Notes: generated by a model not told the origin, from the sequence alone. Counted from the stretch's first letter, positions 39,386 to 58,340 are shown. The stretch: DNA of 64,000 bases from Pseudomonadota bacterium (GCA_013285465.1 CP053449.1:192870-256869), one strand, 5' to 3'. Numbers and translations: made by a program.

Positions 39386-39440
39386 ATTTACATTTTGTAA
39401 ATTTTATATTGACATTTCGGGAATATTTCTGTAGTGTAAT
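39385..39440 (+). promoter_or_regulatory. island promoter module copy A: inverted repeat, UP-like A/T tract, -35 and -10
   Basis: Inverted repeat AATTTACA-TTT-TGTAAATT (39385-39403), TTGACA (39409-39414), a 17-nt spacer containing CGGGAA, then TAGTGT (39432-39437). The core is nearly identical to 41816-41846. Confidence 0.6.
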
Positions 39441-39477
39441 CCTTATCATCCCGAAAAATTATCTGACAAGACAAATC

Positions 39478-39735
39478 ATGACACAGGACAATATGGGCGA
39501 AAATGCCGGTATCCGAGAACGTATCAATGTTCTCGCCATTATTCGCGCGCTGGAAGACCATATTCTGAACGGTACGGAAATGAGTGCGACGCAGATTAAG
39601 GCGGCGCTGGTACTGCTGAAGAAAGCCGTGCCTGATATCACGGCGGCGGCGGAAGCCAAGAACCGCGAGATCAGCAAAGAAGAAATGCTGAAAATTCTGA
39701 AAAAACACGAAGACGCTTTGCAAGAGCTGGAATAA
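39478..39735 (+). CDS. small phage protein in the small-terminase (g1) position; function not established
   Basis: 85 aa (or 79 aa from MGENAG at 39496, which has AGGA upstream). Helical and charged (RINVLAIIRALEDHILNGTEMSATQIKAALVLLKKAVPDI). First gene of the island. Confidence 0.35.
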   Translation: MTQDNMGENAGIRERINVLAIIRALEDHILNGTEMSATQIKAALVLLKKAVPDITAAAEAKNREISKEEMLKILKKHEDALQELE

Positions 39736-39749
39736 GGAGATATCCGAAA

Positions 39750-40130
39750 ATGAGTGACATGACGGCACCGCGCATTACGGCGCGGGGAGAGATTGCGTTC
39801 GCTTTCGCGGGTGCGGAACATCTGTTTAAACCGACGCTGGCGAATATTGCCGCGCTGGAGGAGAAACACGGCAGCCTGTGGCTGCTGGTCGAGAAGATCG
39901 AGAAGAATGCGTTGCCGCTTTCCGCTTTGGCCGCGTCTTTTGCCGCGCTGCTGCCGCAGATGACGGAAGAGGAGATCGGTGCGGAAATTCTGCAGAAAGG
40001 CGCAGCGCATTATCTGCTGTTGCTGCTGCAAATCTGTGCGCCTTTGCTGACGGGATTGTCGGCAATCGGCGCGGCGCGGGAAGAGGATGTTCCGGCGGGG
40101 GAGGACAGCCCCCGGTGCGCCGGACTGTGA
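39750..40130 (+). CDS. tail assembly chaperone, RcGTA g10-like (paralogue 1)
   Basis: GEIAFAFAGAEHLFKPTLANIAALEEKHGSLWLLVEKIEKNALPLSALAASFAALL follows the pattern I recall for 'gene transfer agent family protein' (GEV..V.G....LRLTLGALAELE...G..SL..L..R...G..SA.DL.ALL.AGL). Confidence 0.55.
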   Translation: MSDMTAPRITARGEIAFAFAGAEHLFKPTLANIAALEEKHGSLWLLVEKIEKNALPLSALAASFAALLPQMTEEEIGAEILQKGAAHYLLLLLQICAPLLTGLSAIGAAREEDVPAGEDSPRCAGL

Positions 40131-40333
40131 CGGATGCGCGCAAGGCTGCGCGTTTTTGTCTTGGTGCGCTGGGGTGGACGCCGCAGGTTTTCCGCTGCGA
40201 GGCCGTATTGCAGGATATTATTGACGCGTTGGAAGGTTATGCGCTTTATCGGCTCGGCACGGATACGGCGGAGATGCGTTTGCCGCCTTCCGCCGCGTTT
40301 TTGAACGAGATGACGGCGCAGTTCCCCGATTGA
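40127..40333 (+). CDS. second tail assembly chaperone ORF, RcGTA g10.1-like
   Basis: GTG 40127 overlaps the TGA of the previous ORF (GTGA) and lies in its -1 frame. VTDARKAARFCLGALGWTPQVFRCEAVLQDIIDALEG resembles the G-L..LGL.P..FW.LTP.EL signature of the small GTA chaperone. Confidence 0.45.
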   Translation: MTDARKAARFCLGALGWTPQVFRCEAVLQDIIDALEGYALYRLGTDTAEMRLPPSAAFLNEMTAQFPD

Positions 40334-40334
40334 T

Positions 40335-41774
40335 ATGGACAAAAAAGAACGCGCCATCCGGCAAAGGCTGAAGGATGATTTCATTCATTACGCGGAAAAA
40401 TGCCTGAAAATCCGCTTGAAAACCGGCGGGGTTGCGCCGCTGATACTGAACCCTGCGCAGCGTTATATTCATGAGATGCTGGAGCGGCAGAAACGGGAAA
40501 CAGGACGCGTTCGTGCGCTGGTCTTGAAGGGGCGGCAGCAGGGATGTTCGACTTATGTCGCGGCGCGGTTTTACTGGCAGTTGACGCATCGGCGCGGTGC
40601 AAGCGGTTTTGTGTTGACCCATTTGGAGGCGGCATCGAAAAATATTTACAAGATTTTGCGCCGTTTTCACAAATTCTGTCCTGTCCTTGTGCGCCCTGAG
40701 GCGACGGCGGAGAATATGCAGGAGATGGTCTTCGGCAATCTGGAGACGGCCTACCGGATAGGAAGCGCGGGTTCGGCAGGAGTCGGGCGGTCGGACAGTC
40801 TGCAATATTTTCACGGATCGGAAGTGGCGTATTGGCCGCAAGCGACCACGCATATGGCGGGTATTTTGCAGGCCGTACCTGATCTGGCGGAGACGGAGAT
40901 TATCCTTGAAAGTACATCAGGGGGGGCGGAAGGACTATTTTATAAAATGTGCATGGCGGCGCAAAATGGCGAGATTCCTTATCAGCTGATTTTTGTGCCG
41001 TGGTTCTGGCAACCGGAATATGCGCTGGCTTTGCCGGAGGGCGTATTGGAGCTGACGGCGGAGGAAAAGGATATCAGCACGCATTATGATTTAACGCCGC
41101 AGCAGATTTATTGGCGGCGGATGCGGATCGGCGAGCTGGGGGGCGTTTGGGCGTTTCGCCGTGAATATCCTGCAACGGTGGAGGAGGCCTTTCATGCGGA
41201 TCGCCCCGGTGCGCTCTGGACGCGGGCGATGCTGGAAAAAAACCGTGTACAGGCGGCGCAAATTCCGCCGCTGTCGCGGATTGTCATTGCCATTGATCCT
41301 GCTGTGACCAGCAAAGAGGGCAGTGATGAAACCGGCATCATCGTCGCAGGTCTGGGTGAGGACGGGCATGGTTATGTATTGGAGGATTTAAGCGGCAGAT
41401 ACAGCCCGCGGCAATGGGCACAAAAAACCGTGGCGGCGTTTTGCCGTTATAAGGCCGACCGTATTGTCGCGGAAGTAAATCAAGGCGGGGATATGGTGAC
41501 GGCGGTTTTAAAAACATGTGATCCGCATATCCCTGTGAAAACGGTACGTGCCAGCCGCGGGAAATATGCCCGCGCCGAGCCCGTCGCAGCACTGGACGAG
41601 GCGGGGCAGGTGCATCATGCGGGTGTGCTGGGGATGCTGGAAGACCAGATGTGCGCATTTCTTCCCGGCGGCAGTACAGCTGCGGGCCAAAGCCCTGACC
41701 GTGTTGATGCCCGCGTCTGGGCAATCAGTGAGCTGATGCTGGGACGGAAAACGGATGGCCCGCAACTGTGGTGA
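40335..41774 (+). CDS. terminase large subunit
   Basis: Walker A-like VLKGRQQGCSTY in the N-terminal ATPase. The C-terminal nuclease half IVIAIDPAVTSKEGSDETGIIVAG...DRIVAEVNQGGDMV...ASRGKYARAEPVAAL is typical of GTA/HK97-type TerL. Confidence 0.88.
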   Translation: MDKKERAIRQRLKDDFIHYAEKCLKIRLKTGGVAPLILNPAQRYIHEMLERQKRETGRVRALVLKGRQQGCSTYVAARFYWQLTHRRGASGFVLTHLEAASKNIYKILRRFHKFCPVLVRPEATAENMQEMVFGNLETAYRIGSAGSAGVGRSDSLQYFHGSEVAYWPQATTHMAGILQAVPDLAETEIILESTSGGAEGLFYKMCMAAQNGEIPYQLIFVPWFWQPEYALALPEGVLELTAEEKDISTHYDLTPQQIYWRRMRIGELGGVWAFRREYPATVEEAFHADRPGALWTRAMLEKNRVQAAQIPPLSRIVIAIDPAVTSKEGSDETGIIVAGLGEDGHGYVLEDLSGRYSPRQWAQKTVAAFCRYKADRIVAEVNQGGDMVTAVLKTCDPHIPVKTVRASRGKYARAEPVAALDEAGQVHHAGVLGMLEDQMCAFLPGGSTAAGQSPDRVDARVWAISELMLGRKTDGPQLW

Positions 41775-41949: not shown

Positions 41950-43191
41950 ATGGGATTGAAACACCGGATGACCGGTTTCTTTGGAGGCGGCAAAAATGCG
42001 GCGGAACAAAAAACAAGTGCGGCGGCACCGCTGCTGGTACAGTTTGGTACGGGACAGCCGCGCTTTACGCCGCGCCGTTATGACAGACTGGCGGAAGAGG
42101 GATTCCGCAAGAACGTCATTGCCTATCGCTGTATTCGTTTGATCGCACAGAATGCCGCGGCTGTGCCCTGGTCATTATACCAAGGGCATCAGGGCAACCG
42201 GGTCAAGCTGCATGATCATCCGCTGTTGTCTTTGATCAATCGTCCAAATCCGATGCAGGGGCGCGGCGAATTGATGGAAGCTTTATGCGGTTTCTTTATG
42301 ATTGCCGGTAATGCGTGGCTGGAGGCTGTCGGTCCGTCCGGCGAAACACCGCATGAGCTGTGGGCGCTTCGCCCTGACAGGATGACAATTGTGCCGGGAC
42401 GTGACGGTACGCCGGACGCCTATCGTTACAGCACGGGAGGTCAAAAAATAGACTTTAAAGTCGATCGCGTGACAGGGCGTGCGGCGGTGCTGCATTTGAA
42501 AAACTTTCATCCGCTGGATGACTGGTACGGGATGAGTCCGCTGGAAGCGGCGGCATTCAGTATTGACCAGCATAATGCGGCGGCGAAATGGAATACGGCT
42601 TTGCTGCAGAATTGCGGGCGTCCCGGCGGCGCATTGGTTTACAATCCGCCGCATGCCGACGGGCCGGATACGCTGACGGCAGAACAGCGGCAGGTTTTGA
42701 AAGACGATCTGGAGCGTCATTACAGCGGCGGTGATAATGCCGGACGGCCTCTGGTACTGGAAGGCGGGCTGGACTGGAAAGAAATGTCGCTGAGCCCGAA
42801 AGATATGGACTGGCTGGCGGGCAAGGATATGGCGGCGCGGGAAATTGCGCTGGCCTATAATGTGCCGCCGCAGCTGGTCGGGGTGGAGGGGTCACTGACC
42901 TATGCCAATTTCGAACAGGCGCGGCTGGCTTTATATGATGATGCCGTGCTGCCGCTATTGGCGCATATGCGGGACGAGCTGAATAACTGGCTGGTGCCGC
43001 AATTCGGCGCTGATTTGAAAATGGATTTCGATCTTGATGCTGTGGAGGCACTGGCGCCGCGCAGGGAAAAGATCTGGTCGCGCCTGAATAACGCCTCCTT
43101 TATGACGGTGAATGAGAAACGTGCGGCGCTTGGGTTATCTCCTCTGCCGGATGGGGACTGTCTGGAAATGCAATCAGAGCCCGCGTCCTGA
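41950..43191 (+). CDS. phage portal protein, HK97 family (g3-like)
   Basis: 413 aa. IAYRCIRLIAQNAAAVPWSLYQG...HPLLSLINRPNP...AGNAWLEAV and SPKDMDWLAGKDMAAREIALAYNVPPQLVG. Confidence 0.9.
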   Translation: MGLKHRMTGFFGGGKNAAEQKTSAAAPLLVQFGTGQPRFTPRRYDRLAEEGFRKNVIAYRCIRLIAQNAAAVPWSLYQGHQGNRVKLHDHPLLSLINRPNPMQGRGELMEALCGFFMIAGNAWLEAVGPSGETPHELWALRPDRMTIVPGRDGTPDAYRYSTGGQKIDFKVDRVTGRAAVLHLKNFHPLDDWYGMSPLEAAAFSIDQHNAAAKWNTALLQNCGRPGGALVYNPPHADGPDTLTAEQRQVLKDDLERHYSGGDNAGRPLVLEGGLDWKEMSLSPKDMDWLAGKDMAAREIALAYNVPPQLVGVEGSLTYANFEQARLALYDDAVLPLLAHMRDELNNWLVPQFGADLKMDFDLDAVEALAPRREKIWSRLNNASFMTVNEKRAALGLSPLPDGDCLEMQSEPAS

Positions 43192-43273: not shown

Positions 43274-43603
43274 ATGCACAAGACAGCACAAAAACATATC
43301 CGTCTTGATATCGGCAAAACCCGCTTTCTGGTGCGGCTGAGAATGCCGCTGGTCTGCCAGATTGAAGATGAAATCGGCGGGCTGCCGCTAATTCTGGCGA
43401 ATTTGCGCAGCCAGAACTGGAAACTGGCGGATCTGGTTGCGCTGGTTCATATCATGCTGGCCGAGGAAGGAACATCATATGATTACCATGAGCTGGGCAA
43501 TCATATCCTTTCGGCGGGAACGGGATATTATCACGGCAAGGTGACGGAGTTTTTGGAATTGTGTCTCGCCGATCTTCCGCAGTTTGCTGCCGGTCACGCT
43601 TAA
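43274..43603 (+). CDS. tail assembly chaperone, RcGTA g10-like (paralogue 2)
   Basis: FLVRLRMPLVCQIEDEIGGLPLILANLRSQNWKLADLVALVHIMLAEEG aligns position-for-position with paralogue 1 and with the g10 pattern. It directly precedes the tape-measure gene. Confidence 0.45.
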   Translation: MHKTAQKHIRLDIGKTRFLVRLRMPLVCQIEDEIGGLPLILANLRSQNWKLADLVALVHIMLAEEGTSYDYHELGNHILSAGTGYYHGKVTEFLELCLADLPQFAAGHA

Positions 43604-43621: not shown

Positions 43622-44374
43622 ATGAAAGAAGCAGAGGACAGTGTCCGCCTGGTGCGGGACGCGTTGCAGGATTATATCCATAGTCAGATTGTTGTGCCGC
43701 TGGAAAGTGATCAGAGCCTGCGCAATAAGGTGATGCGTGATTTACGCAGCCGCGCACAGACAGTCAATGAGACAGGGCGGCAGATGAGCGTCTTGAATGA
43801 TGCAATGACGGATGTGTCGCGGCGCGGTATCAAAAATCTGACCGATGGTTTGTTTTCGCTGTCAAAAAACGCCAGTGCGACGCAAAAGGCGCTGCATAAG
43901 GAATTATCGTCTTTGACGCGGGATTTGTTGAACGGCATTCTTGCACAGATCCGTGCGGCGGGAACACGGGGCATTGTGAATGCACCGGCAGAGACCGGCG
44001 GCGGATTACTTTCAGGCATATTTGAATGGGCGGGAGGGCTGCTCGGTTTTCGTGCGGGCGGCGGTTCGGTGATGCCGGGGCAGGCTTTTGTGGTCGGTGA
44101 AAAAGGCCCTGAATTGCTTGTGACGGGGCGGACATCGGGCACGGTCATTCCCAATGGTGGTGTTTCCGGCGGTGCGGCAGCGGTAAATGTGACAGTGATT
44201 AATAATGCCGGTGCGGAAGTGTCTGTGCGTGAAAGGCCGTCACGGGGCGGTGGTCGCGAGTTGGAAATTATGGTCGATGCGCTGGTGGCGAAATCCATCA
44301 GTCAAAGCGGGTCGAAAGCCTTTCAGGCGATGGAGGCGACTTATGGTCTGCGTCCGGTGTTAAACGGCAGATAA
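43622..44374 (+). CDS. short tail tape measure protein (g11-like), in a non-canonical position
   Basis: 250 aa. Helical N-terminal half, then GFRAGGGSVMPGQAFVVGEKGPELLVTGRTSGTVIPNG, the G-ExGPE motif of alphaproteobacterial phage/GTA tape measures. Confidence 0.6.
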   Translation: MKEAEDSVRLVRDALQDYIHSQIVVPLESDQSLRNKVMRDLRSRAQTVNETGRQMSVLNDAMTDVSRRGIKNLTDGLFSLSKNASATQKALHKELSSLTRDLLNGILAQIRAAGTRGIVNAPAETGGGLLSGIFEWAGGLLGFRAGGGSVMPGQAFVVGEKGPELLVTGRTSGTVIPNGGVSGGAAAVNVTVINNAGAEVSVRERPSRGGGRELEIMVDALVAKSISQSGSKAFQAMEATYGLRPVLNGR

Positions 44375-44384: not shown

Positions 44385-45077
44385 ATGACAGGTCAGTTTT
44401 TGCAGGCGGCTTTCGGGATCGAGAAAGCCGGAGAGACAGGTGTGTTCGAAGGATATGCCTCCGTCTTTGATGAAATCGATAATGTAAAAGACCGTGTCGC
44501 ATCGGGAGCATTCCGTGCGTCATTGGAAACGCACCGCCGTCAGGGGCGTATGCCGCCGCTGTTGTGGCAGCATGATATGCGTGAACCTGTCGGTGTGTTG
44601 AAGGAAGTTTATGAAGATAAAAAAGGTCTGCGTATTCGCGGGCAGCTTTTTATTGAGGATATTCCGCGTGCCCGTCAGGCGCACCGCTTGATGAAAGAAA
44701 ACGGATTATCGGGGTTATCAATCGGTTTCCGTGCGGCGGAATCCGCTTTTGATCCGGGCACAGGTGTGCGGACATTGCTGAAAATCGATCTGATGGAAAT
44801 TTCGCTGGTGACCTTCCCTGCGCTGGACAGCGCACGGGTCGCCGGTGTGAAGGCGGCTCTGCAATCCGGCAATATGCCGCCTGTCAGGGCGTTTGAGGGT
44901 TTCCTGCGCGATGCAGGATTTAGCCGGAAACAGGCTAAGGGCATTATTGCCTGCGGCTATCATGGCTTGAAAACAGCGCCGCGCGATGCGGCGGAAGATG
45001 TAAATGACGGGGGTTCCGCTGAAGAGGCAGATATTTTGCTGAATTTGGCAGACCGTCTGCGGGAACTCGCGCTGTAG
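44385..45077 (+). CDS. HK97-family prohead protease (g4-like)
   Basis: FEGYASVFDEIDNVKDRVASGAFRASL...PPLLWQHDMREPVGV...GLSIGF...ISLVTFPA. Confidence 0.9.
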   Translation: MTGQFLQAAFGIEKAGETGVFEGYASVFDEIDNVKDRVASGAFRASLETHRRQGRMPPLLWQHDMREPVGVLKEVYEDKKGLRIRGQLFIEDIPRARQAHRLMKENGLSGLSIGFRAAESAFDPGTGVRTLLKIDLMEISLVTFPALDSARVAGVKAALQSGNMPPVRAFEGFLRDAGFSRKQAKGIIACGYHGLKTAPRDAAEDVNDGGSAEEADILLNLADRLRELAL

Positions 45078-46496: not shown

Positions 46497-46673
46497 ATGA
46501 CGGTCAAAATAAAAGTCATCAAACCTTTCACTTTCGCTTATGACGGGATCAAGCCCGTACATTATGCGCCCGGCGAACACAGCGTCTCGCAGCGTTGCGC
46601 CGAAGTTGCCATTGCGGAAGGCTGGGCAAAAAAACAGCCCGCCAAAACAAAAAAGAAAGGCGGGAAAACATGA
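46497..46673 (+). CDS. small phage protein (58 aa), below the ORF-track cut-off
   Basis: Hand-translated: MTVKIKVIKPFTFAYDGIKPVHYAPGEHSVSQRCAEVAIAEGWAKKQPAKTKKKGGKT. AGGAG lies 7 nt upstream, and the stop overlaps the next start (ATGA). Confidence 0.5.
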   Translation: MTVKIKVIKPFTFAYDGIKPVHYAPGEHSVSQRCAEVAIAEGWAKKQPAKTKKKGGKT

Positions 46674-50351: not shown

Positions 50352-50609
50352 ATGACAGATCAAGATAACACAGTACAGTCGGCATTCGGAACAGTTACCA
50401 GCACAACTGCAGCGGTTATGACAGCGCTGGATAATGTGGTTTCAGGCAATGAGGATGCTGTTAGTGCTATTCGCTCGACAGTACAAGCGAGTAGCAGTAA
50501 CAGTAATAGTAACAGCGCCAAAGCCGCAAAGGGGAACAGCAATAAATCCTCGACGACAAAATCACGCCCTTCGACGGCGATGTCGGGCAAAGGTGGTGGC
50601 GGACGCTAG
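50352..50609 (+). CDS. small S/N/T/K-rich protein (85 aa), autonomous gene inside the tail-tip module
   Basis: AAGGAG lies 7 nt upstream. Sequence MTDQDNTVQSAFGTVTSTTAAVMTALDNVVSGNEDAVSAIRSTVQASSSNSNSNSAKAAKGNSNKSSTTKSRPSTAMSGKGGGGR. It has its own promoter and terminator. Confidence 0.55.
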   Translation: MTDQDNTVQSAFGTVTSTTAAVMTALDNVVSGNEDAVSAIRSTVQASSSNSNSNSAKAAKGNSNKSSTTKSRPSTAMSGKGGGGR

Positions 50610-50731: not shown

Positions 50732-51148
50732 ATGCCGATCCCTTACTGGGCCGGTCATTATATCGGCTTGCCGTTCCGTGAGCACGGACGGAGCATTGCC
50801 GGAACGGATTGCTGGGGGTTGGTACGTCTTGTTTTGCAGGAACAGTTTGCGGCGGTTCTGCCGTCTTATGCCGCGGATTATCAGACAACCGGGAACGCAA
50901 CAGAGCTGGGGAAACTGATCGGGCAGGAAGCGGAGAAATGGATCGCCATATCTGCGGGACAAGAAAAATTGGGAGATGTCATTGTTTTAAGAATGCGGGG
51001 GGCACCGATGCATGTCGGGCTTGTTTTGGGAGACGGGCGAATGCTGCATATTGAAAAACATATCAACAGCGCCATCGAAGATTACCGCAGCAGGCGCTGG
51101 CGTGAACGGGTGACGGGGTTTTACCGTCATCCGCAGCTTGAAAAATAG
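50732..51148 (+). CDS. NlpC/P60-family tail peptidase (lambda gpK / g14-like)
   Basis: Catalytic Cys context GTDCWGLVRLV and His context GAPMHVGLVLGDGRMLH; 138 aa. Confidence 0.85.
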   Translation: MPIPYWAGHYIGLPFREHGRSIAGTDCWGLVRLVLQEQFAAVLPSYAADYQTTGNATELGKLIGQEAEKWIAISAGQEKLGDVIVLRMRGAPMHVGLVLGDGRMLHIEKHINSAIEDYRSRRWRERVTGFYRHPQLEK

Positions 51149-51157: not shown

Positions 51158-54100
51158 ATGATTTCTGATAAAAACAACAAACCCGCAGCGGCGGTGCGGG
51201 TTTCCGCACGTCCGCATCCTTTTGCGGCGCAGAATAATCTATATTTTTTGCCTGCGGGTACGACGCTGGAGGAGATGGCGCAGAAAATACAGCCGGATCC
51301 GTTGCTGCGCAGATATTTGCGGGGTTTCATTAACGATGCGATGATTCCGCAACGGAAATGGCGTTTCATACGTCCGAAAGCGGGGACGGATGTACGGTTT
51401 TGTTCTGTCCCGATGGGCGGCGGTGGCGGAAAGAATCCGCTGCGTACGGTTTTGAGCCTGGCTATTCTGGCATCAACCTCCTTTTTGGGGACGGCGTTTG
51501 CAGCCGGTGCTTTGGGACAGGCATCGCTGTTTGGAATCAGCGGTGGCAGACTGATCAGCGGTGCACTCAGCTTTGCGGGACGGTTGGCTTTGAATGCGCT
51601 GGCTCCGCCCCCGCGTCAGCGTTTGTCCTCATCTGCCAAGGCAAGTCCGACGCTGTTTATTCAGGGTGCGCAAAACCGTCTTGATCCCTTCGGGAAAGTG
51701 CCGCAAGTTCTGGGCAGGCACCGCATGGTTCCGCCAATGGGAGCAAAGCCCTTTACCGAAACTTTCGGGGATGACCAGTATTTACGGATGTTGTTTGTCT
51801 GGGGATACGGTCCGCTGGATATTGCCGATTTAAAAATCGGGGAAACACCGCTGTCGGAGTTTAAGGATGTTGAGATTGTGCACCGTTACGGTTTTCCCGA
51901 AGATGCGCCGCTGACGCTTTATAGCGGCAGCGTTATTCAGAATGACTTGCAGATTGCCTTGCGGGAAAGTGAAGGTTATCACATCCGGACAACGGCAACG
52001 GATGCGGAGGAGATTTCCGTTGATGTAACCTTTCCGCGCGGTTTGATGGTGCTGGCGGATGGCGGTGTACGCCAGTCGCGCAATGTGGTGCTGGAAGTAC
52101 AATATGCACCTGCCGGCACAGAGGCGTGGAGTGCGGGGGAAGAGGAATTCGCGCTGCTGGATGTTACGGGCAACCAGAATAATGCGCTTAGAAAATCCGT
52201 CCGCTTTATTGTGCCGAAAGGCCAATATGATGTGCGTATACGCCGTATCACGGAAGATTCGGAAGATGATTCCGTATTTGACGAATGTGTCTGGACGGCG
52301 GTCAGAACATTGCGTTATGAAGCACCGATTGCCATGGCAGGACTGGCGGTAACGGCGCTGCGTATCAAAGCGACGGATCAGTTGAGCGGTGTGATTGACC
52401 GTTTTAACGGTGTGGTGCAATCCATTGTGCCTGACTGGGATGGCGAGAACTGGGTGTCGCGCGCGACATCCAATCCTGCGGCATTGTTCCGTCATGTTCT
52501 GCAAGGTGCGGCAAATGCCCGTCCGCTGCCGGAAAACCGCCTTGATCTGGCCAAGCTGGAGAATTGGCATGCGCTTTGTGAAACAGAAGAACGGGAATTT
52601 AACGCCGTTATAGACTATCAGGCATCGGTGCGTGATGTCCTGATTGATGTCGCGGCGGCGGGGCGTGCTGCCCCTTCCGTTATTGACGGGAAATGGGGGG
52701 TGGTTGCGGATATGCCGCAAGCGGTTCCCGTACAGCATTTTACGCCGCGCAACAGTTCCGGTTTCCGGGGAGAAAAGCATTTTGATACGCCGCCGCACGG
52801 CTTGCGTGTGCGTTTTGCCAATCAGGAGAAATATTGGCAGCAGGATGAAATGCTGGTTTATGACGACGGCTATGATGCGGCAACGGCCGTGCGGTTTGAA
52901 ACGCTGGAACTGCCCGGTATTACCGACCCTGCGCAAATTTGGCGCGATGCGCGTTATCATATCGCCACGGCGCGGCTGCGCGGGGAAAGCTACAGCTTTA
53001 CCGTTGATATTGAACATCTGGTCTGTACACGCGGCGACTTGATCCGTCTGACGCATGATGTGCCGTTATTCGGCGTACAGGCGGCACGGGTCAAAGCCGT
53101 CAGTGAAACCGGCGGGCTGGTAACGCATGTCTTGCTGGACGAAGAGATCGAGATGCAGGCGGGGCATACATATTCCGTCAGATTCCGCAGGCAGGACGGT
53201 ACGAGTTTGGTCAAACAGCTGGTGACGGCTGCCGATACGGCAAATAATCTGCAATTTGAAACGCCGTTTGATTTGGCTGATGCGCCATTGGCGGGGGATC
53301 TGGCCATGTTCGGTGAAACCGGACAGGAAAGCGTGGAGCTGATTGTGCAATCCATCCGCCCCGGCCCCGATCTGACGGCGCGTCTGACTTGTCTGGATGC
53401 AGCCCCTGCCGTCCATCTGGCTGATCAGGGGGTGATTCCGGCTTTTGACAGTCACATCACTCTGCCGCAAGGGCTGGAGCGTCCGCCCCGTCCGCATATT
53501 TTATCCGTCCAGTCCGGCGCGGAAGTGCTGGAGGTGCAGGATGGCGGTCTTTTCGCGCCGCAGATTGTTGTGCGTTTTGCGCCGCCTGCGGCAGGGGATG
53601 ATTTGGAATTACGGGTCAAAATCCGTGATGTGAATAACAGTTTCTTTTCTGCGGCGCGGTTTACATTGCTGGACGGGGATGCGGTCTCAATCAAAGATGT
53701 GCGGACGGCCGGTATTTATGATTTGCGCTTTTTATACATTCGAAAGAACGGCTGGTCTTCGCAAGAGACATTACTGCCGAATTACCATGTCATCGGCACA
53801 GGCGGCGCGCCGCAGGATGTGGAAGGTTTTCGTATCAGTGTTCTGGGGGATACGGCCTTTCTGTCATGGGAGGCGGTGCCGGATATTGATCTCAGCCATT
53901 ATATTCTGCGCTTTAGCGCCGCAACGACAGCAGCCTCGTGGCATGAGGGGGTTGATATGCTGCCGCATATTGAGAAAGGTGCGTCTTCGGTGGCGGTTCC
54001 CGCATTGGTCGGCACATATCTTTTGAAGGCGGTGGACATGCAGGGGGAACAGAGCGTATCTGCGGCCGGTATCGTATCGACGGCTGCCGGATTATCCGCT

Positions 54101-54871
54101 TATAACGCGGTTGCGATTCTGACGGAAGACCCCGCATTTACCGGATTTTGTGACAATATGGCGGCAGCCGGAGGTGTTTTAAGTCTGTCCGGGCAGGACA
54201 GTATTGACGATTGGGGCGATATTGATGCGGTCACGCGTTTTGATATCGGGCTGAACGGTCTGGCACCGGAAGGCAGTTATACATTTGCATCCCCCTTTGA
54301 TCTGGGAGCTGTCTACAGCTCGACCCTGTCAGCATCGGTTGCGGTTGATGTGCTGGATTTATCCGCTGTGATGGATGAATGGGGTGATGTCGACAGTCGG
54401 CTGGATTGGGATACCGCCAGCGGCGGCGGCGCATGGCAGACCCGTTTACAGTTGCGCACAACCGCTGATGACCCTGCAGATGCGGAGGCTGTCTGGACGG
54501 AATGGGAAGATTTTATGGTCGGCGACTATACGGCGCGCGGCTTTGCTTTCCGTTTATTGGCCCGGACGGAAGACATATTTGTCACGCCTGTCGTGTCAGC
54601 TCTGAGCGTGAAAATCGATATGCCCGACCGGGTGGATGGGCGGGAAAACATTCTGTCGGATTCTGCCGGTTCAAGCGTTGTATTCAACCGTTCTTTCCGT
54701 GCCATACCTGCGATTGCCGTATCGGCACAGGATATGGAGACCGGCGATTACTACAGCATTACGGAGACCACGGAAAGCGGTTTTGATATCCGGTTCTTTA
54801 ATGCGGCAGGCGCGGGAATTATGCGCCGTTTTGATTATGTGGCCAAAGGATACGGCATTCGCCAGCCTTAA
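51158..54871 (+). CDS. host specificity / central tail fibre protein (lambda gpJ / g15-like) with a gpI-like N-terminal segment
   Basis: 1237 aa. The first ~190 aa resemble tail assembly protein I (PMGGGGGKNPLRTVLSLAILAS..., then NRLDPFGKVPQVLGRHRMVPP). The rest is J-like (YLRMLFVWGYGPLDIADLKIGETPL, large beta-rich C-terminal part). Confidence 0.8.
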   Translation: MISDKNNKPAAAVRVSARPHPFAAQNNLYFLPAGTTLEEMAQKIQPDPLLRRYLRGFINDAMIPQRKWRFIRPKAGTDVRFCSVPMGGGGGKNPLRTVLSLAILASTSFLGTAFAAGALGQASLFGISGGRLISGALSFAGRLALNALAPPPRQRLSSSAKASPTLFIQGAQNRLDPFGKVPQVLGRHRMVPPMGAKPFTETFGDDQYLRMLFVWGYGPLDIADLKIGETPLSEFKDVEIVHRYGFPEDAPLTLYSGSVIQNDLQIALRESEGYHIRTTATDAEEISVDVTFPRGLMVLADGGVRQSRNVVLEVQYAPAGTEAWSAGEEEFALLDVTGNQNNALRKSVRFIVPKGQYDVRIRRITEDSEDDSVFDECVWTAVRTLRYEAPIAMAGLAVTALRIKATDQLSGVIDRFNGVVQSIVPDWDGENWVSRATSNPAALFRHVLQGAANARPLPENRLDLAKLENWHALCETEEREFNAVIDYQASVRDVLIDVAAAGRAAPSVIDGKWGVVADMPQAVPVQHFTPRNSSGFRGEKHFDTPPHGLRVRFANQEKYWQQDEMLVYDDGYDAATAVRFETLELPGITDPAQIWRDARYHIATARLRGESYSFTVDIEHLVCTRGDLIRLTHDVPLFGVQAARVKAVSETGGLVTHVLLDEEIEMQAGHTYSVRFRRQDGTSLVKQLVTAADTANNLQFETPFDLADAPLAGDLAMFGETGQESVELIVQSIRPGPDLTARLTCLDAAPAVHLADQGVIPAFDSHITLPQGLERPPRPHILSVQSGAEVLEVQDGGLFAPQIVVRFAPPAAGDDLELRVKIRDVNNSFFSAARFTLLDGDAVSIKDVRTAGIYDLRFLYIRKNGWSSQETLLPNYHVIGTGGAPQDVEGFRISVLGDTAFLSWEAVPDIDLSHYILRFSAATTAASWHEGVDMLPHIEKGASSVAVPALVGTYLLKAVDMQGEQSVSAAGIVSTAAGLSAYNAVAILTEDPAFTGFCDNMAAAGGVLSLSGQDSIDDWGDIDAVTRFDIGLNGLAPEGSYTFASPFDLGAVYSSTLSASVAVDVLDLSAVMDEWGDVDSRLDWDTASGGGAWQTRLQLRTTADDPADAEAVWTEWEDFMVGDYTARGFAFRLLARTEDIFVTPVVSALSVKIDMPDRVDGRENILSDSAGSSVVFNRSFRAIPAIAVSAQDMETGDYYSITETTESGFDIRFFNAAGAGIMRRFDYVAKGYGIRQP

Positions 54872-54901: not shown

Positions 54902-56032
54902 ATGACACAATCCAATCCTATTATCGGCGCAGATAAAAGCGGTCTGCAATACCGTAATGAAGATAATGACGGCAAACGTGCGCTTTTAAATCATCATAAG
55001 GGTGCAACCGCCCCCTCTTATGCCGAAGCGGGGGCGTTATGGCTGGATGATAATGCAACGCCCTGGCTGCTCAAATGGTATGACGGCACAAGCTGGATTA
55101 CGCAGGGCAGTCTTGATGCGGGTAGCGGTTTGTTCACGCCCTATGTGAACGGTGCGGCACTGGGGGATGCAGGGGAAAGTTCCAAAGGTCTGGTTTTGCG
55201 TGCAAGCGATGCGGAGGCGGCAGCCGGAGAGGATACGCAGAAATTTATTACACCTGCGCAACTGGCGGCTTACGGCGGCGGCGATTTTTTAACCAGCGTC
55301 AGTCAGGGGGATGTGAACACGTCGACGGGAGAAATCTCGGGGATGGTGAGTACGACCGGCGCGATTATCGGAACATTGCCGGGCGGGGAATACGGTTTCA
55401 GCTATACGCTTTTGGGGGTTACGGGTGCGTCATTTAATACCTATGTCACAACGGACAGCAATAGTTATGCCGCCAAAATTTTTGCGCATAAAACAGCAGG
55501 CGGCGGAACGAGTCTTATTACGGTCAAGCAGCGCTATATTACGGCGTCGCCGCCTTTTGATATGGGGGACGGTACGGCCTATGGCTTCCTTTATTTAAAA
55601 CTGGATGCGGCGGGAAATATTATCGGCCATTATCTCGCCGATGTGCCGCCCTGGGGTTATAACGGCCCGACATCCGTGCGTGCCGATAAAATCGACCGTA
55701 TCACAGGCAAGAAATACCGCAAGGTTCTGACGCCGCAAACTATGGAAGCTTATATGGACGGCGCGCCGCTGGAATACATTTACGAGGAAATCACACAAGA
55801 GATTAAAAACGCCGATATGGATCTGATACCGCAGCCTTTTGCTTTGGCGGAAGGCGAGACGGCGGTGCTGGTTGATCCGCTGGATCAGCGTATCGAAAAA
55901 CTGATCGAATTACAGAATACGGGCGGAGATGTTGCCGCTCTGATTAGCGGCGGTTTTGTCCGCCCTGATAACGAGGCGCTGTCTCGTAGCGGCCCTGCAG
56001 GCATTATGCAGGTTGCCTGGAAGAACGACTGA
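54902..56032 (+). CDS. tail fibre protein
   Basis: GATAPSYAEAGALWLDDNATPWLLKWYDGTSWI and SSKGLVLRASDAEAAAGEDTQKFITPAQLA are motifs common at phage fibre N-termini. Confidence 0.6.
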   Translation: MTQSNPIIGADKSGLQYRNEDNDGKRALLNHHKGATAPSYAEAGALWLDDNATPWLLKWYDGTSWITQGSLDAGSGLFTPYVNGAALGDAGESSKGLVLRASDAEAAAGEDTQKFITPAQLAAYGGGDFLTSVSQGDVNTSTGEISGMVSTTGAIIGTLPGGEYGFSYTLLGVTGASFNTYVTTDSNSYAAKIFAHKTAGGGTSLITVKQRYITASPPFDMGDGTAYGFLYLKLDAAGNIIGHYLADVPPWGYNGPTSVRADKIDRITGKKYRKVLTPQTMEAYMDGAPLEYIYEEITQEIKNADMDLIPQPFALAEGETAVLVDPLDQRIEKLIELQNTGGDVAALISGGFVRPDNEALSRSGPAGIMQVAWKND

Positions 56033-56051: not shown

Positions 56052-56321
56052 ATGGAAAATCACACATCATCGCTGCTGCCGGCGGTTTTTGCGGCGCTGT
56101 TTGCCGGAATGGGAACATTACTGGCCTCCGAAGAAAAACTGACATGGCGGATTGTTGTCGGGCGGGCATTGAGTTCAGCGGCGCTGGGGGCTGCGGCGGG
56201 AGCGATTTTTCTGTGGTTTCCCAATGCGCCGACGGCGGCGCTGGTCGGGGTTGCGGCATCGCTGGCCAGCCTTGGTACCAGCGGGCTTGAGAAATTACTG
56301 CAACTGGTTGCAAAGAAATAA
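56052..56321 (+). CDS. holin-like membrane protein
   Basis: 89 aa with 2-3 TM helices and a charged C-terminus (LLQLVAKK). First gene of the lysis block. Confidence 0.55.
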   Translation: MENHTSSLLPAVFAALFAGMGTLLASEEKLTWRIVVGRALSSAALGAAAGAIFLWFPNAPTAALVGVAASLASLGTSGLEKLLQLVAKK

Positions 56322-56341: not shown

Positions 56342-56887
56342 ATGAATGATATTCTGATGCCGCGCGGCATTCGCAATAATAATCCCGGCAATATCCGTAA
56401 AAGCAGTGCGCATTGGCAAGGAATGCGTGATGAGATGTTCGATTCCGCTTTTGTGGAATTTACCGACCCCGTTTTCGGCCTGCGCGCGATGATGAAGATT
56501 TTCCTGACCTATTACCACAAATACGGTCTGGATACGGTTCAGAGCATTATCAACCGCTGGGCGCCACCGTCGGAAAATGCGACTGACCATTATGCGGCGC
56601 ATGTTGCGCGGAAGCTGGGTGTAAAACGCTATGATCTGCTGGATGTTCCGGCATTACTGGTGCCTTTGGCGCAGGCTGTGGTGCTGCATGAAAACGGTGC
56701 GCCGCCCCGTGCATTGGAAAAACCGCATTATTGGTATGCGGATGAAATCTATCAGCAGGCGCGGGACATGGCGCTGGGGATCAGGGAAAGCGAGAGCGGC
56801 GGTAAACAGGGCGGTTTCGCGCCGCAGGAGGGGTTGTTCCCCGTTTATGAAACCAAAATGCATGACGGATATGGCAGTTTTTTGTAA
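56342..56887 (+). CDS. putative muralytic enzyme / endolysin (RGIRNNNPGNIR-motif family)
   Basis: MPRGIRNNNPGNIRKSSAHWQGM...FVEFTDPVFGLRA...INRWAPPSENAT. From memory this family is annotated as structural protein P5-like in prophages. The position between holin and spanins supports a lysis role. Confidence 0.5.
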   Translation: MNDILMPRGIRNNNPGNIRKSSAHWQGMRDEMFDSAFVEFTDPVFGLRAMMKIFLTYYHKYGLDTVQSIINRWAPPSENATDHYAAHVARKLGVKRYDLLDVPALLVPLAQAVVLHENGAPPRALEKPHYWYADEIYQQARDMALGIRESESGGKQGGFAPQEGLFPVYETKMHDGYGSFL

Positions 56888-56898: not shown

Positions 56899-57087
56899 AT
56901 GTTGAAAAATATTCTGACATTTATAATTGCGCGAGCAAAGGAACGCTCGACATGGCTGGGGCTGATTTCCTTCGGCGCGGCGCTGGGGGTCGCGTTATCT
57001 CCCGAACAAACGGAGGCTATTATCGCGTCAGGCGTTGCGCTGGCGGGACTTGCGGCGGCGTTCAGCAAAGATGCGCCGAAATCATGA
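56899..57087 (+). CDS. small two-TM protein (second holin/antiholin candidate)
   Basis: 62 aa: ERSTWLGLISFGAALGVAL...IIASGVALAGLAAAF. Confidence 0.45.
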   Translation: MLKNILTFIIARAKERSTWLGLISFGAALGVALSPEQTEAIIASGVALAGLAAAFSKDAPKS

Positions 57088-57302
57088 CATCACTTTTGAT
57101 GGCAGTGCTGGGATTTTGCGCTTTGTCATTTTGCGTGTTTCTGGCCTGCCGCTGGGCGTTTCGCGCAGGGCGGGAAGAAGAAAAAGCCCAAAACGAGCGG
57201 GGGAAAAATGAACATATTGAAAAAGCGTTGCTGCATCGTGACCGTCTGCGCCGCGATGCTGATTATGCCCGCCGCTTGCGCGCCCGCTTCACGCGCAAGT
57301 GA
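57084..57302 (+). CDS. i-spanin (Rz-like)
   Basis: Internal ATG of track ORF 56631..57302. MTSLLMAVLGFCALSFCVFLAC is an N-terminal TM helix, followed by a charged helical REEEKAQNERGKNEHIEKALLHRDRLRRDADYARRLRA. ATGA overlap with the previous gene. Confidence 0.55.
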   Translation: MTSLLMAVLGFCALSFCVFLACRWAFRAGREEEKAQNERGKNEHIEKALLHRDRLRRDADYARRLRARFTRK

Positions 57303-57408
57303 TTTCTGCGCCCTCTACCGCCCTGTTTACCTAAACAGCAGTGATACGGAAGAAACGAAAAAGCAGATAGATGGCAATAATGCAATATGGTTAGAGTTTT
57401 GCTCATAA
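57208..57408 (+). CDS. o-spanin (Rz1-like lipoprotein), overlapping the i-spanin gene in the +1 frame
   Basis: Leader MNILKKRCCIVTVCAAMLIMPAAC, an atypical lipobox with Pro at -3. The mature part DFCALYRPVYLNSSDTEETKKQIDGNNAIWLEFC matches the alphaproteobacterial phage o-spanin pattern as I recall it. Confidence 0.5.
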   Translation: MNILKKRCCIVTVCAAMLIMPAACAPASRASDFCALYRPVYLNSSDTEETKKQIDGNNAIWLEFCS

Positions 57409-57445
57409 TATAATGTAAAAAAACAATATTTACATAAAAAAACAC

Positions 57446-57515
57446 TTGATTTTAATGATTTGGTAACTTATATTGAGGTATCATAGTGATACATACATAT
57501 ATCAAGGTGATATAT
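57446..57515 (+). promoter_or_regulatory. TA-module promoter plus two tandem operator palindromes
   Basis: TTGATT (57446-51), 17 nt, TATATT (57469-74). Then GTATCA-TAG-TGATAC (57478-92) and ATATATCA-AGG-TGATATAT (57497-515). The palindrome centres are 21 bp apart, and the second covers the RBS. Confidence 0.65.
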
Positions 57516-57516
57516 T

Positions 57517-57861
57517 ATGGCGAAAAATAAAAATACTGGAAAAACTAAGGTCGCAAAATTTCCTGCTAATGGAAAAATTAGTGATACAGACCTTTTAAAA
57601 AAAATAAGGGAATTGATTGCGGCTGATAGTGGAAACTTGTTTTATACCAATCACGCGCTGGATCGTATGGAAGAACGAGGTTTTACCAGACGGCAGGTTG
57701 ATTGTTGTATCCAAAAGGGGTGGGTTAAAGAGCCCAATTACTACGATCATAAGAACGGAAATTATGTAGTTAGTATTACACGAGGGTGCGCTGGAGAGAC
57801 AATTGATGTCATTTTAGCTTGGTGTCCTGAAGATAATGTTGTTGTTATAACTGTTTATTGA
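57517..57861 (+). CDS. DUF4258-domain protein (putative toxin)
   Basis: NHALDRMEERGFTRRQVDCCIQKGWV...YVVSITRG...VITVY; 114 aa, AT-rich. Confidence 0.7.
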   Translation: MAKNKNTGKTKVAKFPANGKISDTDLLKKIRELIAADSGNLFYTNHALDRMEERGFTRRQVDCCIQKGWVKEPNYYDHKNGNYVVSITRGCAGETIDVILAWCPEDNVVVITVY

Positions 57862-57878
57862 TATGGAGGTATTTAAAA

Positions 57879-58340
57879 ATGGCTAAGTCTAAAAAATACC
57901 ACTATACGGAGTGTGGTCTTGATTACGTTTATCTTTTGAATGGGTATACAGAAAGAATAACCCCATATGGGAAGGCTGTTTCTATCACTGCTGTGGAGCA
58001 GTTACATAAGATTATTGGAGAAGCAATCATTTCAAGTCCAGAGCCATTGAGTGGAGCGGAAATTCGTTTCTTGAGGCATGAACTGGACTGGTCTCAAAAA
58101 AGATTAGGCTCTCAATTGAAAGTAGAGGGACAGACTGTCGGACGGTGGGAACGTGGTGAAACTTCAATTGATAGTACGGCAGACAACTATATTCGCATCT
58201 TATACGCTTTATATGCTTTGGATGATAGTGCGGATGATATCAAATCTTTTGTGGATATGATGGCCGACTTAGATTCTAAAAAGGTACACAAAGAACTTAA
58301 GTTCACAAAAACTGACGAAAGCTGGAAAACCGCAGCTTAG
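57879..58340 (+). CDS. HTH (XRE/MqsA-like) antitoxin/regulator
   Basis: ATG 57879 with GGAGG upstream. N-terminal YHYTECGLDYVYLLNGY, C-terminal HTH LSGAEIRFLRHELDWSQKRLGSQLKVEGQTVGRWERGE. Confidence 0.7.
   Translation: MAKSKKYHYTECGLDYVYLLNGYTERITPYGKAVSITAVEQLHKIIGEAIISSPEPLSGAEIRFLRHELDWSQKRLGSQLKVEGQTVGRWERGETSIDSTADNYIRILYALYALDDSADDIKSFVDMMADLDSKKVHKELKFTKTDESWKTAA

Follow-up and report, generated by a model that had tools for sequence, protein, structure and literature searches.

What is a bacterium doing with a set of phage-type packaging, head, tail and lysis genes between two core genes of its chromosome, when no integrase or replication gene accompanies them? This question is raised by a locus of about 18 kb that lies between uvrA and the 5-aminolevulinate synthase gene hemA in a stretch of 64,000 nucleotides of a Pseudomonadota bacterium (the window, analysed here as a whole). 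The answer reached in the present analysis is that the segment 39386-57408 is probably a domesticated, non-autonomous, phage-derived particle-and-lysis locus, that is to say, a 'viriform' resembling a gene transfer agent (GTA), which is inherited with the chromosome in a Micavibrio-like clade. As such it is a strong candidate for a new GTA family, known at present from its genes alone.

The borders of the locus are given by two core genes. uvrA (36506-39385; NF001503, 1584 bits) has its stop at 39385, and hemA, whose enzyme is typical of Alphaproteobacteria, is the minus-strand gene 58378-59625 (TIGR01821, 654 bits), with its end at 58378. The interval contains 26 genes of phage type, covering packaging, head, neck, tube, tail tip, fibre and lysis, and the particle-plus-lysis block proposed by an earlier reading of the bare sequence (the sequence-only reading) is borne out by the profile matches. 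All open reading frames (ORFs) of the element are intact in the window, as had been said of the structural ones. Profile searches against Pfam, NCBIfam and PHROGs detected no integrase, replication, recombination or lysogeny family in the island; in agreement with the earlier statement that there is no tRNA or obvious att repeat, the tRNA scan found no tRNA and the repeat scan no direct repeats at the borders of the island; and no Rfam family matched. Since integrase, replication and immunity genes are missing, the locus cannot propagate as a virus. The earlier claim that no integrase, replication or lysogeny ORF is present stands, but the interval does contain a helix-turn-helix (HTH) ORF, which is the antitoxin of a terminal cargo and is described below. 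The conserved element proper is therefore taken as about 39386-57408 (about 18 kb), and the island region is identical to contig RBMU01000008.1 of GCA_016743515.1.

The evidence strongly favours a maintained, non-autonomous chromosomal locus over a decaying prophage. First of all, the coding sequences are under constraint. Compared with the loci of two close strains, L003 and L017 (loci of relatives are numbered in this way), the island has a synonymous divergence (dS) of 0.07-0.10 and a ratio of nonsynonymous to synonymous divergence (dN/dS, or w) of 0.09-0.11. In other lineages the genes of TerL, portal, protease, capsid and connector taken together give dN/dS of 0.05-0.14 at dS 0.24-1.4, and the genes from tube to endolysin give 0.29-0.38. 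Compared with L007, where synonymous sites are saturated, every detected orthologue is aligned over nearly its full length and the ORFs are intact. Moreover, the composition is that of the host: the GC content is 53.6% in the island versus 51.9-52.1% in the flanks, GC at third codon positions (GC3) is 57% versus 59%, and the codon frequencies of island and host genes are correlated with r=0.93. Recent transfer was rejected on account of this host-like composition.

The locus is also shared by a family of related chromosomes. In a scan of one genome per species, the tube protein was found in 10 metagenome-assembled genomes (MAGs) labelled Micavibrio sp., 'Bdellovibrionales' (the placement of Micavibrio by NCBI) or Alphaproteobacteria; all 10 have the same gene order where the contigs allow, with protein identities of about 27% to 77%. 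About 25 more contigs of IMG/VR, with capsid identities of 61-77%, show the same synteny, and the next-best capsids there (at most 54% identity) come without the tip module. When metagenomes were searched with the first gene of the locus, 28 loci were retrieved, some of them on contigs of 126, 403, 497, 621 and 968 kb and one on a contig of 2.56 Mb (Ga0226835_1000001). In the protein database the capsid homologues at 66-100% identity form more than 120 clusters (90%), labelled Micavibrio sp. or Alphaproteobacteria and several of them on contigs of 0.5-2.67 Mb, among which are contigs of 2.25, 2.56, 2.64 (OZ337366.1) and 2.67 Mb, the last with the capsid gene of the window itself. One copy of the element stands on a Malaspina virome contig. 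The placement of the hosts follows their MAG labels. Synteny and strong purifying selection, two of the properties for which the sequence-only reading had proposed to compare relatives, are both found.

Genes of the locus and their control

The features of the interval are as follows, each with its evidence in brackets.

39386..39477, plus strand: putative regulatory region (reading of the sequence)
39478..39735, plus strand: first gene, 85-amino-acid (aa) helical protein in the small-terminase position (position)
39750..40130, plus strand: TAC1, tail assembly chaperone of the Phage_TAC_11 (GTA-gp10) family (PF11836, E=3e-10)
40115..40333, plus strand: -1-frame ORF overlapping the end of TAC1 and terminating in ...FPD (conserved partner ORF after TAC1 in relatives)
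40335..41774, plus strand: TerL, 479 aa (Terminase_6C, E=1.6e-17)
41950..43191, plus strand: portal, HK97 family (PF04860, E=7e-86; TIGR01537)
43274..43603, plus strand: TAC2, paralogue of TAC1 (PF11836, E=1.3e-4)
43622..44374, plus strand: tape measure, 250 aa (PHROG matches to C-terminal parts of tape measure families)
44385..45077, plus strand: prohead serine protease S78 (PF04586, E=1e-33; TIGR01543)
45124..46419, plus strand: major capsid protein, HK97 fold (TIGR01554, E=1e-114)
46497..46673, plus strand: 58-aa ORF between capsid and connector (conserved; weak phrog_4926 match)
46670..47251, plus strand: g6-like head-tail connector (adaptor) (TIGR02215, E=6e-36)
47257..47598, plus strand: g7-like head completion protein (PF05521, E=2e-7)
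47602..48366, minus strand: secreted Sel1-repeat protein with signal peptide, moron-like (PF08238, E=2e-18)
48436..48867, plus strand: g8-like tail completion protein (Tail_completion_gp17, formerly DUF3168; PF11367, E=5e-19)
48900..49313, plus strand: tail tube, Phage_tail_2 (PF06199, E=1e-24)
49339..49692, plus strand: 117-aa tip protein in the lambda gpM position (phrog_384, E=1e-21)
49689..50162, plus strand: DUF1833 protein, gpL-like tail-tip hub (PF08875, E=1e-16)
50352..50609, plus strand: Ser/Asn-rich low-complexity 85-aa ORF, uncertain as a gene (no family)
50732..51148, plus strand: NlpC/P60 peptidase in the gpK/g14 position (PF00877, E=7e-15)
51158..54871, plus strand: TipJ-family central tip/host-specificity protein, 1237 aa (NF040662, E=1.5e-63; PF24801; PF13550)
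54902..56032, plus strand: fibre-like protein, 376 aa (conserved N-terminal anchor, variable C-terminus)
56052..56321, plus strand: holin, Phage_holin_3_2 (PF04550, E=7e-13)
56342..56887, plus strand: endolysin (phrog_873, E=2e-49; PDB 7q47 'Endolysin', E=2e-19)
56899..57087, plus strand: 62-aa membrane protein with a presumed part in the lysis cassette (53-68% identity in relatives)
57084..57302, plus strand: i-spanin-like protein with N-terminal transmembrane helix and charged C-terminus (sequence features, conserved motif)
57208..57408, plus strand: o-spanin-like lipoprotein overlapping the preceding gene in another frame (lipobox ...MPAAC)
57517..58340, plus strand: cargo, DUF4258 toxin (57517-57861) and XRE/MqsA-like HTH antitoxin (57858-58340) (PF14076, PF13560 and, weakly, TIGR03830)

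Two corrections to the earlier picture follow from this list. The block had been described as fully co-directional, and the Sel1-repeat gene at 47602-48366 is on the minus strand; the gene order had been implied to be canonical, and the chaperones and the 250-aa tape measure are in fact displaced into the head module.

In the packaging and head part, the product of the first gene (85 aa) is one of a family of 468 proteins annotated as 'hypothetical', and in relatives it is encoded directly upstream of TerL. Its identification as small terminase (TerS) by homology was rejected, as no match was found in Pfam, NCBIfam, PHROGs or a family-profile search of PDB, and its AlphaFold model (50 sequences, pLDDT 68.6) gave no Foldseek match with E<4. 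TerL is 57-73% identical in family members, and the nearest phage TerLs reach 43-45% identity over 58-65% of its length. TAC2 stands directly after the portal in nearly all family loci spanning that region, and a single family hidden Markov model (HMM) matches both TAC1 and TAC2, which marks them as paralogues. The -1-frame ORF behind TAC1 looks like g10.1 or a 'T'-type chaperone extension, probably reached by frameshifting. At 40132-40155, just past the TAC1 stop and within the start of this ORF, there is a GC-rich hairpin followed by a T-run, which could be an internal terminator or a structure that stimulates frameshifting. The 58-aa ORF after the capsid gene has 54-64% identity in L007, L008, L187 and L209.

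In the tip, the NlpC/P60 protein scores 39 bits with TIGR02219, under the cutoff of 81.9 bits, and the Ser/Asn-rich ORF before it occurs in close relatives only, with a partial match in L008. The TipJ protein carries GpJ FNIII-A and Phage-tail_3 domains and shares 38% identity, across 99% of its length, with a region of Rhizobium phage RHph_Y3_1 which is annotated there as separate tail-assembly and fibre genes. The N-terminal 66-132 residues of the fibre are 63-70% identical family-wide, and the remainder varies in length and sequence, in a manner that may be likened to the swapping of receptor-binding domains; the orthologues compared were those at 17366-18040 of L007, 17427-18425 of L009, 18008-19330 of L015 and 13973-14803 of L024. 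In the lysis part, the endolysin is 54-65% identical in relatives, the i-spanin-like protein has the motif RDRLRRD..YA.RLR..FTR conserved in them, and the o-spanin-like lipoprotein keeps 43-65% identity; the overlapping pair of transmembrane protein and lipoprotein is read as putative spanins.

The region in front of the first gene is of particular interest for control. A perfect palindrome, ATTTACAttttGTAAAT, stands at 39386-39402 just past the uvrA stop, followed by a promoter-like TTGACA at 39409-39414, a 17-nt spacer, TAGTGT at 39432-39437 and a leader of 40 nt. The region aligns with a block of about 60 bp, promoter-like and with a leader, which occupies the same place upstream of the first gene in 8 divergent relatives whose proteins are only 40-60% identical; the block consists of TTGAC-N17, in which the spacer between the -35 and -10 elements is itself conserved (CGGGGATCATTTC), a -10-like hexamer and the conserved leader CATGCTCGCGAAGTGTCG. 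The block is located at about 780-937 in L010 and about 3440-3572 in L018. A consensus promoter scan did not report the promoter of the window, because its -10 element matches at 3 of 6 positions only. At least 5 relatives have a terminator-like hairpin with T-run between leader and first ATG (2 confirmed by the scan), and the copy in the window has no such hairpin between leader and first gene. A boxB/nut-like RNA hairpin in the leader was considered and dropped, as RNAalifold gave no consensus pairs; the conserved block may instead be a putative protein-binding site at the DNA level. In addition, a 26-nt inverted repeat (85% complementary) pairs 39384-39409 with 41799-41824 in the 175-bp spacer between TerL and portal; part of the upstream palindrome thus recurs in inverted form in that spacer, which might point to a repeated operator or to another site of control. 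The arrangement as a whole appears to resemble a phage late operon held off by termination, and the shared promoter, leader and hairpins suggest control by antitermination through a factor encoded outside the island. Such an arrangement would imply a trans-acting factor; no regulator is encoded in the island.

Relatives, gene order and chromosomal setting

In most relatives the order runs from the first gene through TerL, portal, TAC2, a variable slot, protease and capsid to the g7-like gene and the minus-strand Sel1 gene, and then through the g8-like gene, tube, TAC1, -1 ORF, tape measure and 117-aa protein onward. The window departs from it at three points: TAC1, whose orthologue sits after the tube gene in relatives, lies with its -1-frame partner between the first gene and TerL (39750-40333), TAC2 is joined by the tape measure between portal and protease (43274-44374), and the gene in the gpM position follows directly after the tube gene. 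In a neighbour-joining capsid tree the window forms one subclade with L003, L007 and L187, and in all four the tape measure comes after TAC2, and the tube gene is directly followed by that of the 117-aa protein. The move of the tape measure is thus one event, kept afterwards through 24-30% capsid divergence; that the rearranged order has been retained follows from its being common to the entire subclade. The position of TAC1 and the -1 ORF between first gene and TerL is shared with L180 and L184, judging by their short contigs. The relocated genes are constrained as well: w is 0.07-0.12 for TAC1, and for the tape measure, which is identical in L003, it is 0.09 in the comparison with L017.

The variable slot between TAC2 and protease, occupied by the tape measure in the subclade of the window, contains in several relatives a protein of 587-619 aa which has phage tail repeats (PF12789), is lectin-like at its C-terminus and may be a head fibre; it is found at 516-2375 of L009, 1911-3758 of L013 and 13350-15113 of L208, with small ORFs alongside. 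Most family members have the minus-strand Sel1 gene between the g7- and g8-like genes, including all MAG loci that cover this junction, and a third subclade (L023, L024, L028, L203) is without it. This place behaves like a moron site of prophages. In L209 a gene of the superinfection-immunity family (PF14373) stands beside the Sel1 gene at 7901-8718.

The tape measures form a graded series of tail shortening. The family HMM defines a unit of about 150 aa, which is present four times in L173 (809 aa; 1882-4308) and several times in L167 (718 aa; 1562-3715), both phage-like relatives, exactly once in most family members (154-167 aa, e.g., 11043-11507 of L009), and in part in several members (99-129 aa, e.g., 15625-15921 of L022). 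The tape measure of the window consists of one unit and an insert, 250 aa in all.

Both ends of the island gather strain-specific low-GC cargo. The toxin-antitoxin stretch 57517-58340 has 36.4% GC against 52-54% around it, and the alignment with L003, whose island DNA is 98% identical to the window, breaks exactly at 57383-58378, where L003 has at 18604-19857 a 417-aa ORF without Pfam family in place of the pair. On the left, a 118-aa ORF with 39% GC (1-358 of L017) abuts the end in place of uvrA. The sequence-only reading had extended the island to 58340; its final part of about 1 kb is strain-variable cargo and no lysogeny module, as follows from its 36% GC and its replacement in L003. The HTH antitoxin as a phage repressor was rejected on the same grounds.

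As for the chromosomal setting, the nearest flanks in the window (29.7-36.1 kb and 61-63.4 kb) are housekeeping wherever a family matches: left of the island these are radA, cvpA, a gene for cation efflux, one resembling ubiH, and IHF-beta, and right of it dnaX. The genes farther upstream look housekeeping as judged by eye alone. In relatives, the flanks were read up to 10 kb per side where the contig allowed: upstream by Pfam in L187, L197, L203, L208 and L209 and by eye or ORF-pattern synteny in L018, L021, L022, L030, L181, L188, L195 and L202, and downstream in L168-L171, L209 and L210. The downstream flanks in IMG/VR were found through the conserved fibre N-terminus; the endolysin had been rejected as a probe, since it retrieved about 80 unrelated phages and one family member. 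The sequence-only reading had named integrase and replication modules beside the island in close relatives as a finding that would speak against it; in the inspected flanks (six loci by Pfam, about eight by eye) there is no integrase, recombinase, repressor or replication gene. Early genes of phage ppBeUSDA76-1, among them those of its integrase, HTH regulators and methyltransferase, had no BLAST match in any of the family loci, which is weak evidence, such genes diverging fast.

Upstream the flanks contain ankyrin-repeat proteins, nadA-nadB-nadC, rodA-dnaN-M48 peptidase-dsbA, petB/petA, coproporphyrinogen oxidase and small secreted proteins, and downstream ankyrin proteins, a protein in which an M48-like HExxH motif was recognised by eye, DUF3126 and thymidine kinase. 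Most lineages have one left-hand neighbour gene in common: directly to the left of the locus, two deep subclades encode a small secreted protein of the pattern C..Y...C.DR..K.ERMK, which argues for one old insertion inherited vertically; the contexts of the window (uvrA) and of L203 (dsbA) are derived. The genomes carrying the element are also unusually rich in large ankyrin-repeat proteins beside the locus (1-9800 of L187, 1-9990 of L197, 1-9550 of L208 and 16147-18275 of L168), a class of proteins otherwise characteristic of bacteria living in close interaction with other cells. From the MAG labels and general knowledge of Micavibrio, we take the hosts to be obligate predators of bacteria.

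Relation to gene transfer agents and phages

By their profile matches, the head, neck and tube are to be regarded as homologous to those of RcGTA, the GTA of Rhodobacter capsulatus. The best PDB match of the portal is Rcc01684 (E=3e-100), that of the capsid is Rcc01687 (2e-83; 46.6% identity over 320 residues), that of the tube is Rcc01691 (E=6e-10) and that of the connector is the adaptor Rcc01688 (E=4e-9). PF11836, the family of TAC1 and TAC2, is itself named GTA-gp10, and the two systems are further alike in being chromosomal clusters without integrase and in having an NlpC/P60 peptidase and a large tip protein containing Phage-tail_3. RcGTA g4 presumably belongs to PF04586, and g7, g8 and g10 to the same Pfam families as the corresponding window genes; the gene order of the relatives up to the tape measure presumably agrees with g1-g11. 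The tape measure is short in both: about 200 aa in RcGTA, 250 aa in the window and, in the majority of relatives, 99-167 aa.

The differences begin with the tip, which in the window consists of the 117-aa protein in the gpM position and DUF1833, whereas g12 and g13 of RcGTA are DUF2460/TIGR02217 and DUF2163/TIGR02218. Pfam and NCBIfam assign no family to the 117-aa protein. The family profiles of the 117-aa and DUF1833 proteins have no significant match in PDB to lambda gpM or gpL or to RcGTA g12 or g13, and Pfam finds in the TipJ of the window no GTA_TIM domain such as that of g15. The structure model of DUF1833 (AlphaFold2, pLDDT 71.5) matches chain F of the Sf11 tail (4e-8) and lambda gpL (8iyk_L, 5e-6), as well as the siphophage tip hubs of JBD30, T1, T5 pb3 and Chi, and more weakly the RcGTA virion chain 6tba_7A (292 residues, 1e-3); the tip is thus lambda-like in its families and has just the general fold in common with the RcGTA hub. 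Unlike RcGTA, the locus of the window contains a holin-endolysin-spanin cassette and a fibre, a second TAC paralogue after the portal and a minus-strand Sel1 gene; its relatives also carry the extra TAC paralogue and most of them the Sel1 gene. At the level of families, the contrast to RcGTA drawn by the sequence-only reading (lysis cassette within the locus, tip of DUF1833 and TipJ) therefore holds.

The element is accordingly best filed as a variant of the GTA kind outside the RcGTA-like family in the strict sense, because gene order, tip families and host clade do not agree with the latter. The conserved g1-to-g15 order is absent from the window, and the relatives keep the order tube-chaperone-tape measure. 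RcGTA-like head-tail clusters are those of Rhodobacterales, Rhizobiales, Caulobacterales and Sphingomonadales. Large ones are inherited vertically in an alphaproteobacterial clade (clade 1 of Shakya et al. 2017, PMC5721377; clade 4 of Kogay et al. 2019, PMC6821227) in which Micavibrio is not placed: for deeper groups, Micavibrio among them, the former study found just small clusters of at most 5 genes, and the latter predicted RcGTA-like clusters in seven orders only, which exclude Micavibrio-like hosts. The relatives of the present element are labelled Micavibrio sp., 'Bdellovibrionales' or Alphaproteobacteria.

Other systems offer partial parallels. The particle module of VSH-1 of Brachyspira includes lysis genes. 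That of BaGTA of Bartonella is reported to do so too, and BaGTA to be assembled from separate phage-derived loci. A lysis cassette within the locus is therefore no argument against a GTA. Both come from unrelated phage lineages, BaGTA needs a separate run-off replication module, and the likeness is one of description only. Tail-less GTA-like head clusters under purifying selection, which are RcGTA homologues beyond the classical clade, have been reported from the reduced genomes of Rickettsiales and Holosporaceae endosymbionts (George et al. 2022, PMC9254644); these keep capsid and portal, whereas the window element is complete from terminase to spanins. F-type tailocins share with the window a lambda-type tail tip and a lysis cassette of their own, and the headless loci L209 and L210 are similar to them in gene content, but in the window the packaging and head genes are intact and strongly constrained, and the headless variant is without a tape measure. 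In the literature on Micavibrio with gene transfer agents or prophages and on Micavibrionales, of which the coverage was incomplete, no account of the element was found.

Among phages, the closest complete one is the temperate Bradyrhizobium phage ppBeUSDA76-1 (OP596613). Its head genes are arranged as TerL, portal, protease, capsid, connector, adaptor, DUF3168 and tube, and its tail genes begin with a chaperone annotated 'gene transfer agent family' and continue with the tape measure, tip proteins of 138 and 173 aa, a C40 peptidase and a J-like protein, with late genes thereafter that include a peptidoglycan-binding protein, so that the order of morphogenesis is the same as in the family. Together with Azospirillum phage Cd it reaches 43-45% identity in the capsid, 36-38% in the J-like protein, 42% in the 117-aa protein and 38% in the C40 peptidase; its tip proteins are 30-42% identical to those of the window, the 138-aa protein after the tape measure being the homologue of the 117-aa protein. 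In contrast, it has a genome of 43 kb with integrase, HTH regulators, DNA methyltransferase, HNH endonucleases and early genes (phage Cd has 62 kb), its tape measure is 669 aa long, and its TerL and portal are of another lineage (portal 24% identical, TerL without match). The 'new layout' claimed earlier is largely the morphogenesis-and-lysis half of a known type of temperate siphophage; what differs is the truncated tape measure and, in the lineage of the window, the relocation of the chaperone and tape-measure genes.

Favoured reading, rivals and significance

If the locus is indeed a domesticated GTA-like viriform, its working can be pictured as follows. Transcription would start from a dedicated promoter just past uvrA and be switched on by a chromosomally encoded factor, which is expected because the island has no regulator. 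Portal, S78 protease and HK97-fold capsid protein, assigned by their families, would build the prohead, which TerL, probably partnered by the 85-aa first gene product, would fill with DNA. The g6-, g7- and g8-like proteins would close the head and join it to a tail that is predicted to be very short, about 35-40 nm at 1.5 A per residue of the 250-aa tape measure, with the Phage_TAC_11 chaperones handling the latter. The lambda-like tip would be composed of the gpM-position protein, the gpL-like DUF1833 hub, NlpC/P60 peptidase, TipJ and a fibre with swappable C-terminus, as their families and fold indicate. Holin, endolysin and spanin pair would then lyse the producer cell, and the particles would presumably carry cellular DNA, as in GTAs, which are defined by the packing of essentially random host DNA, in fragments shorter than their own locus, and by its delivery to other cells. 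A more specific proposal, namely a new GTA family in Micavibrio-like obligate predators that was domesticated independently from a siphophage with RcGTA-type head and lambda-type tip and has self-contained lysis, a single-unit tape measure and antitermination by a chromosomal factor, is a serious possibility which we hold with somewhat less than even confidence.

Several findings weigh against the favoured reading. The head proteins are equally near to phages and to RcGTA: portal and capsid are 45-47% and 43-45% identical to their nearest phage homologues, which for the capsid are those of Azospirillum phage Cd and ppBeUSDA76-1. The small-terminase role of the 85-aa protein is assigned by position, no feature of the sequence reveals the packaged DNA, the capsid size or the making of particles, and there is no regulator gene in the conserved element. 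The chromosomal context varies among some subclades (uvrA/hemA, ankyrin cluster, nadABC, dnaN-dsbA), which could reflect past mobility rather than genome rearrangement. In the strain comparisons dS is mosaic within the island, and neighbouring genes can differ in it by anything from 0 to 0.5: it is 0 in the tube, g8-like and DUF1833 genes and (in L003) the tape measure, 0.11-0.14 in TerL, portal and capsid, and 0.2-0.5 in TAC1, which points to recombination among strains within the element.

Decay of copies belongs to the same side of the balance. In a widespread marine lineage, represented by L209 and L210, the first gene, TerL, portal, protease and tape measure are gone, and of the capsid gene the last 89 codons survive; TAC2 is kept, as are intact neck, tube, tip, fibre and lysis genes (5943-18060 in L209), and the protein of this headless variant was found on 23 contigs of up to 850 kb. 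A response-regulator gene is inserted in the variant. Three short metagenome contigs, in which assembly error is possible, have deletions or a frameshift: the TerL of L191 is frameshifted, in L193 TerL residues 1-74 are fused to the middle of the connector gene, and in L196 the first gene and TerL are followed after 1.4 kb by the fibre gene. From the headless loci and the decayed contigs it follows that the element is dispensable in some lineages. Frequent pseudogenisation, named by the sequence-only reading as the mark of a decaying prophage, is not the pattern observed among the loci compared, where decay was seen in the one marine lineage and the three contigs. Its alternative between a GTA-like machine and a decaying prophage is answered in part: the locus is non-autonomous, selected and no recent wreck, and a few relatives have decayed.

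Of the rival explanations, the one that survives best is a cryptic defective prophage, whose early region was lost and whose late region persists by inertia or for its embedded cargo, with no particles being made. The gene set is the late half of phages such as ppBeUSDA76-1, there are moron-like genes within the island and at both ends, and the decayed copies (headless L209/L210; L191, L193, L196) also speak for it, as does the unusual position of the chaperone and tape-measure genes in the lineage of the window. But more than 20 structural genes are intact where synonymous sites are saturated, and the head genes have a dN/dS of 0.05-0.14, when neutral decay would lead to about 1 with stops and frameshifts; moreover, the relocated TAC1 and tape measure are under constraint, and the rearranged order is common to a whole subclade. 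We consider this explanation unlikely. A functional temperate prophage would have an integrase with att sites, an immunity repressor and a replication module next to its late genes, and none of these was found in the window or in the inspected flanks of relatives.

Rather improbable, too, is a mobile element that is split or depends on a helper, of which the locus would supply the structural half, while the genes for replication, excision and regulation would be elsewhere in the genome or in a helper phage; its particles would prefer that element, or an island amplified in situ as by the run-off replication of BaGTA, to random host DNA. A trans-acting factor is implied by the conserved promoter, leader and terminator in an island without regulator, and BaGTA is a reported precedent for a GTA from separate phage-derived loci; the chromosomal context that varies between subclades and a fibre C-terminus varying like a phage receptor-binding protein also fit. 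Against this, nothing phage-like lies within 10 kb on each side where the flanks were read, the composition is fully host-like, the left junction gene is common to deep subclades, and no pac- or cos-like repeat was found, the sole notable repeat being the 26-nt inverted one.

Very improbable is a tail-centred function, that is, a bacteriocin-like or prey-directed device resembling F-type tailocins, with heads as a dispensable leftover: despite the loss of head and packaging, L209 and L210 do retain intact genes for neck, tube, tip, fibre and lysis, the tip has an NlpC/P60 peptidase and a variable fibre, and the hosts are presumably obligate predators (MAG labels and general knowledge), but the capsid, portal and terminase that F-type tailocins do without are missing from L209/L210 alone and present in the window, the head and packaging genes are the most constrained of all (w 0.05-0.14 versus 0.29-0.38 in tail genes), and the headless variant has no tape measure, so that its tail assembly should fail and it looks like decay.

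A domesticated GTA-like viriform thus being the favoured reading, its meaning for the biology of these bacteria can be stated. To our knowledge, few GTA lineages are established (RcGTA-like, BaGTA, VSH-1, Dd1 and VTA), and each sheds light on the way in which viruses turn into organelles for gene exchange in their hosts. Published surveys found large RcGTA-like clusters only in a clade of 5-7 alphaproteobacterial orders, Micavibrio having small clusters of at most 5 homologues (PMC5721377, PMC6821227). A particle-plus-lysis locus in Micavibrio-like bacteria would point either to a deeper origin of such elements or to an independent domestication. The series from full phage through four-unit and one-unit tape measure and relocated genes to headless remnant may represent the steps of domestication. 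The near-complete chromosomes (contigs of 2.25-2.67 Mb) allow a search for the regulatory partner, and Micavibrio species can be cultured with prey. If the locus is no GTA, its strong conservation in reduced predator genomes still needs an explanation; if the more specific proposal of a new GTA family in these predators is true, it would offer bacteria with small genomes a means of exchanging chromosomal DNA.

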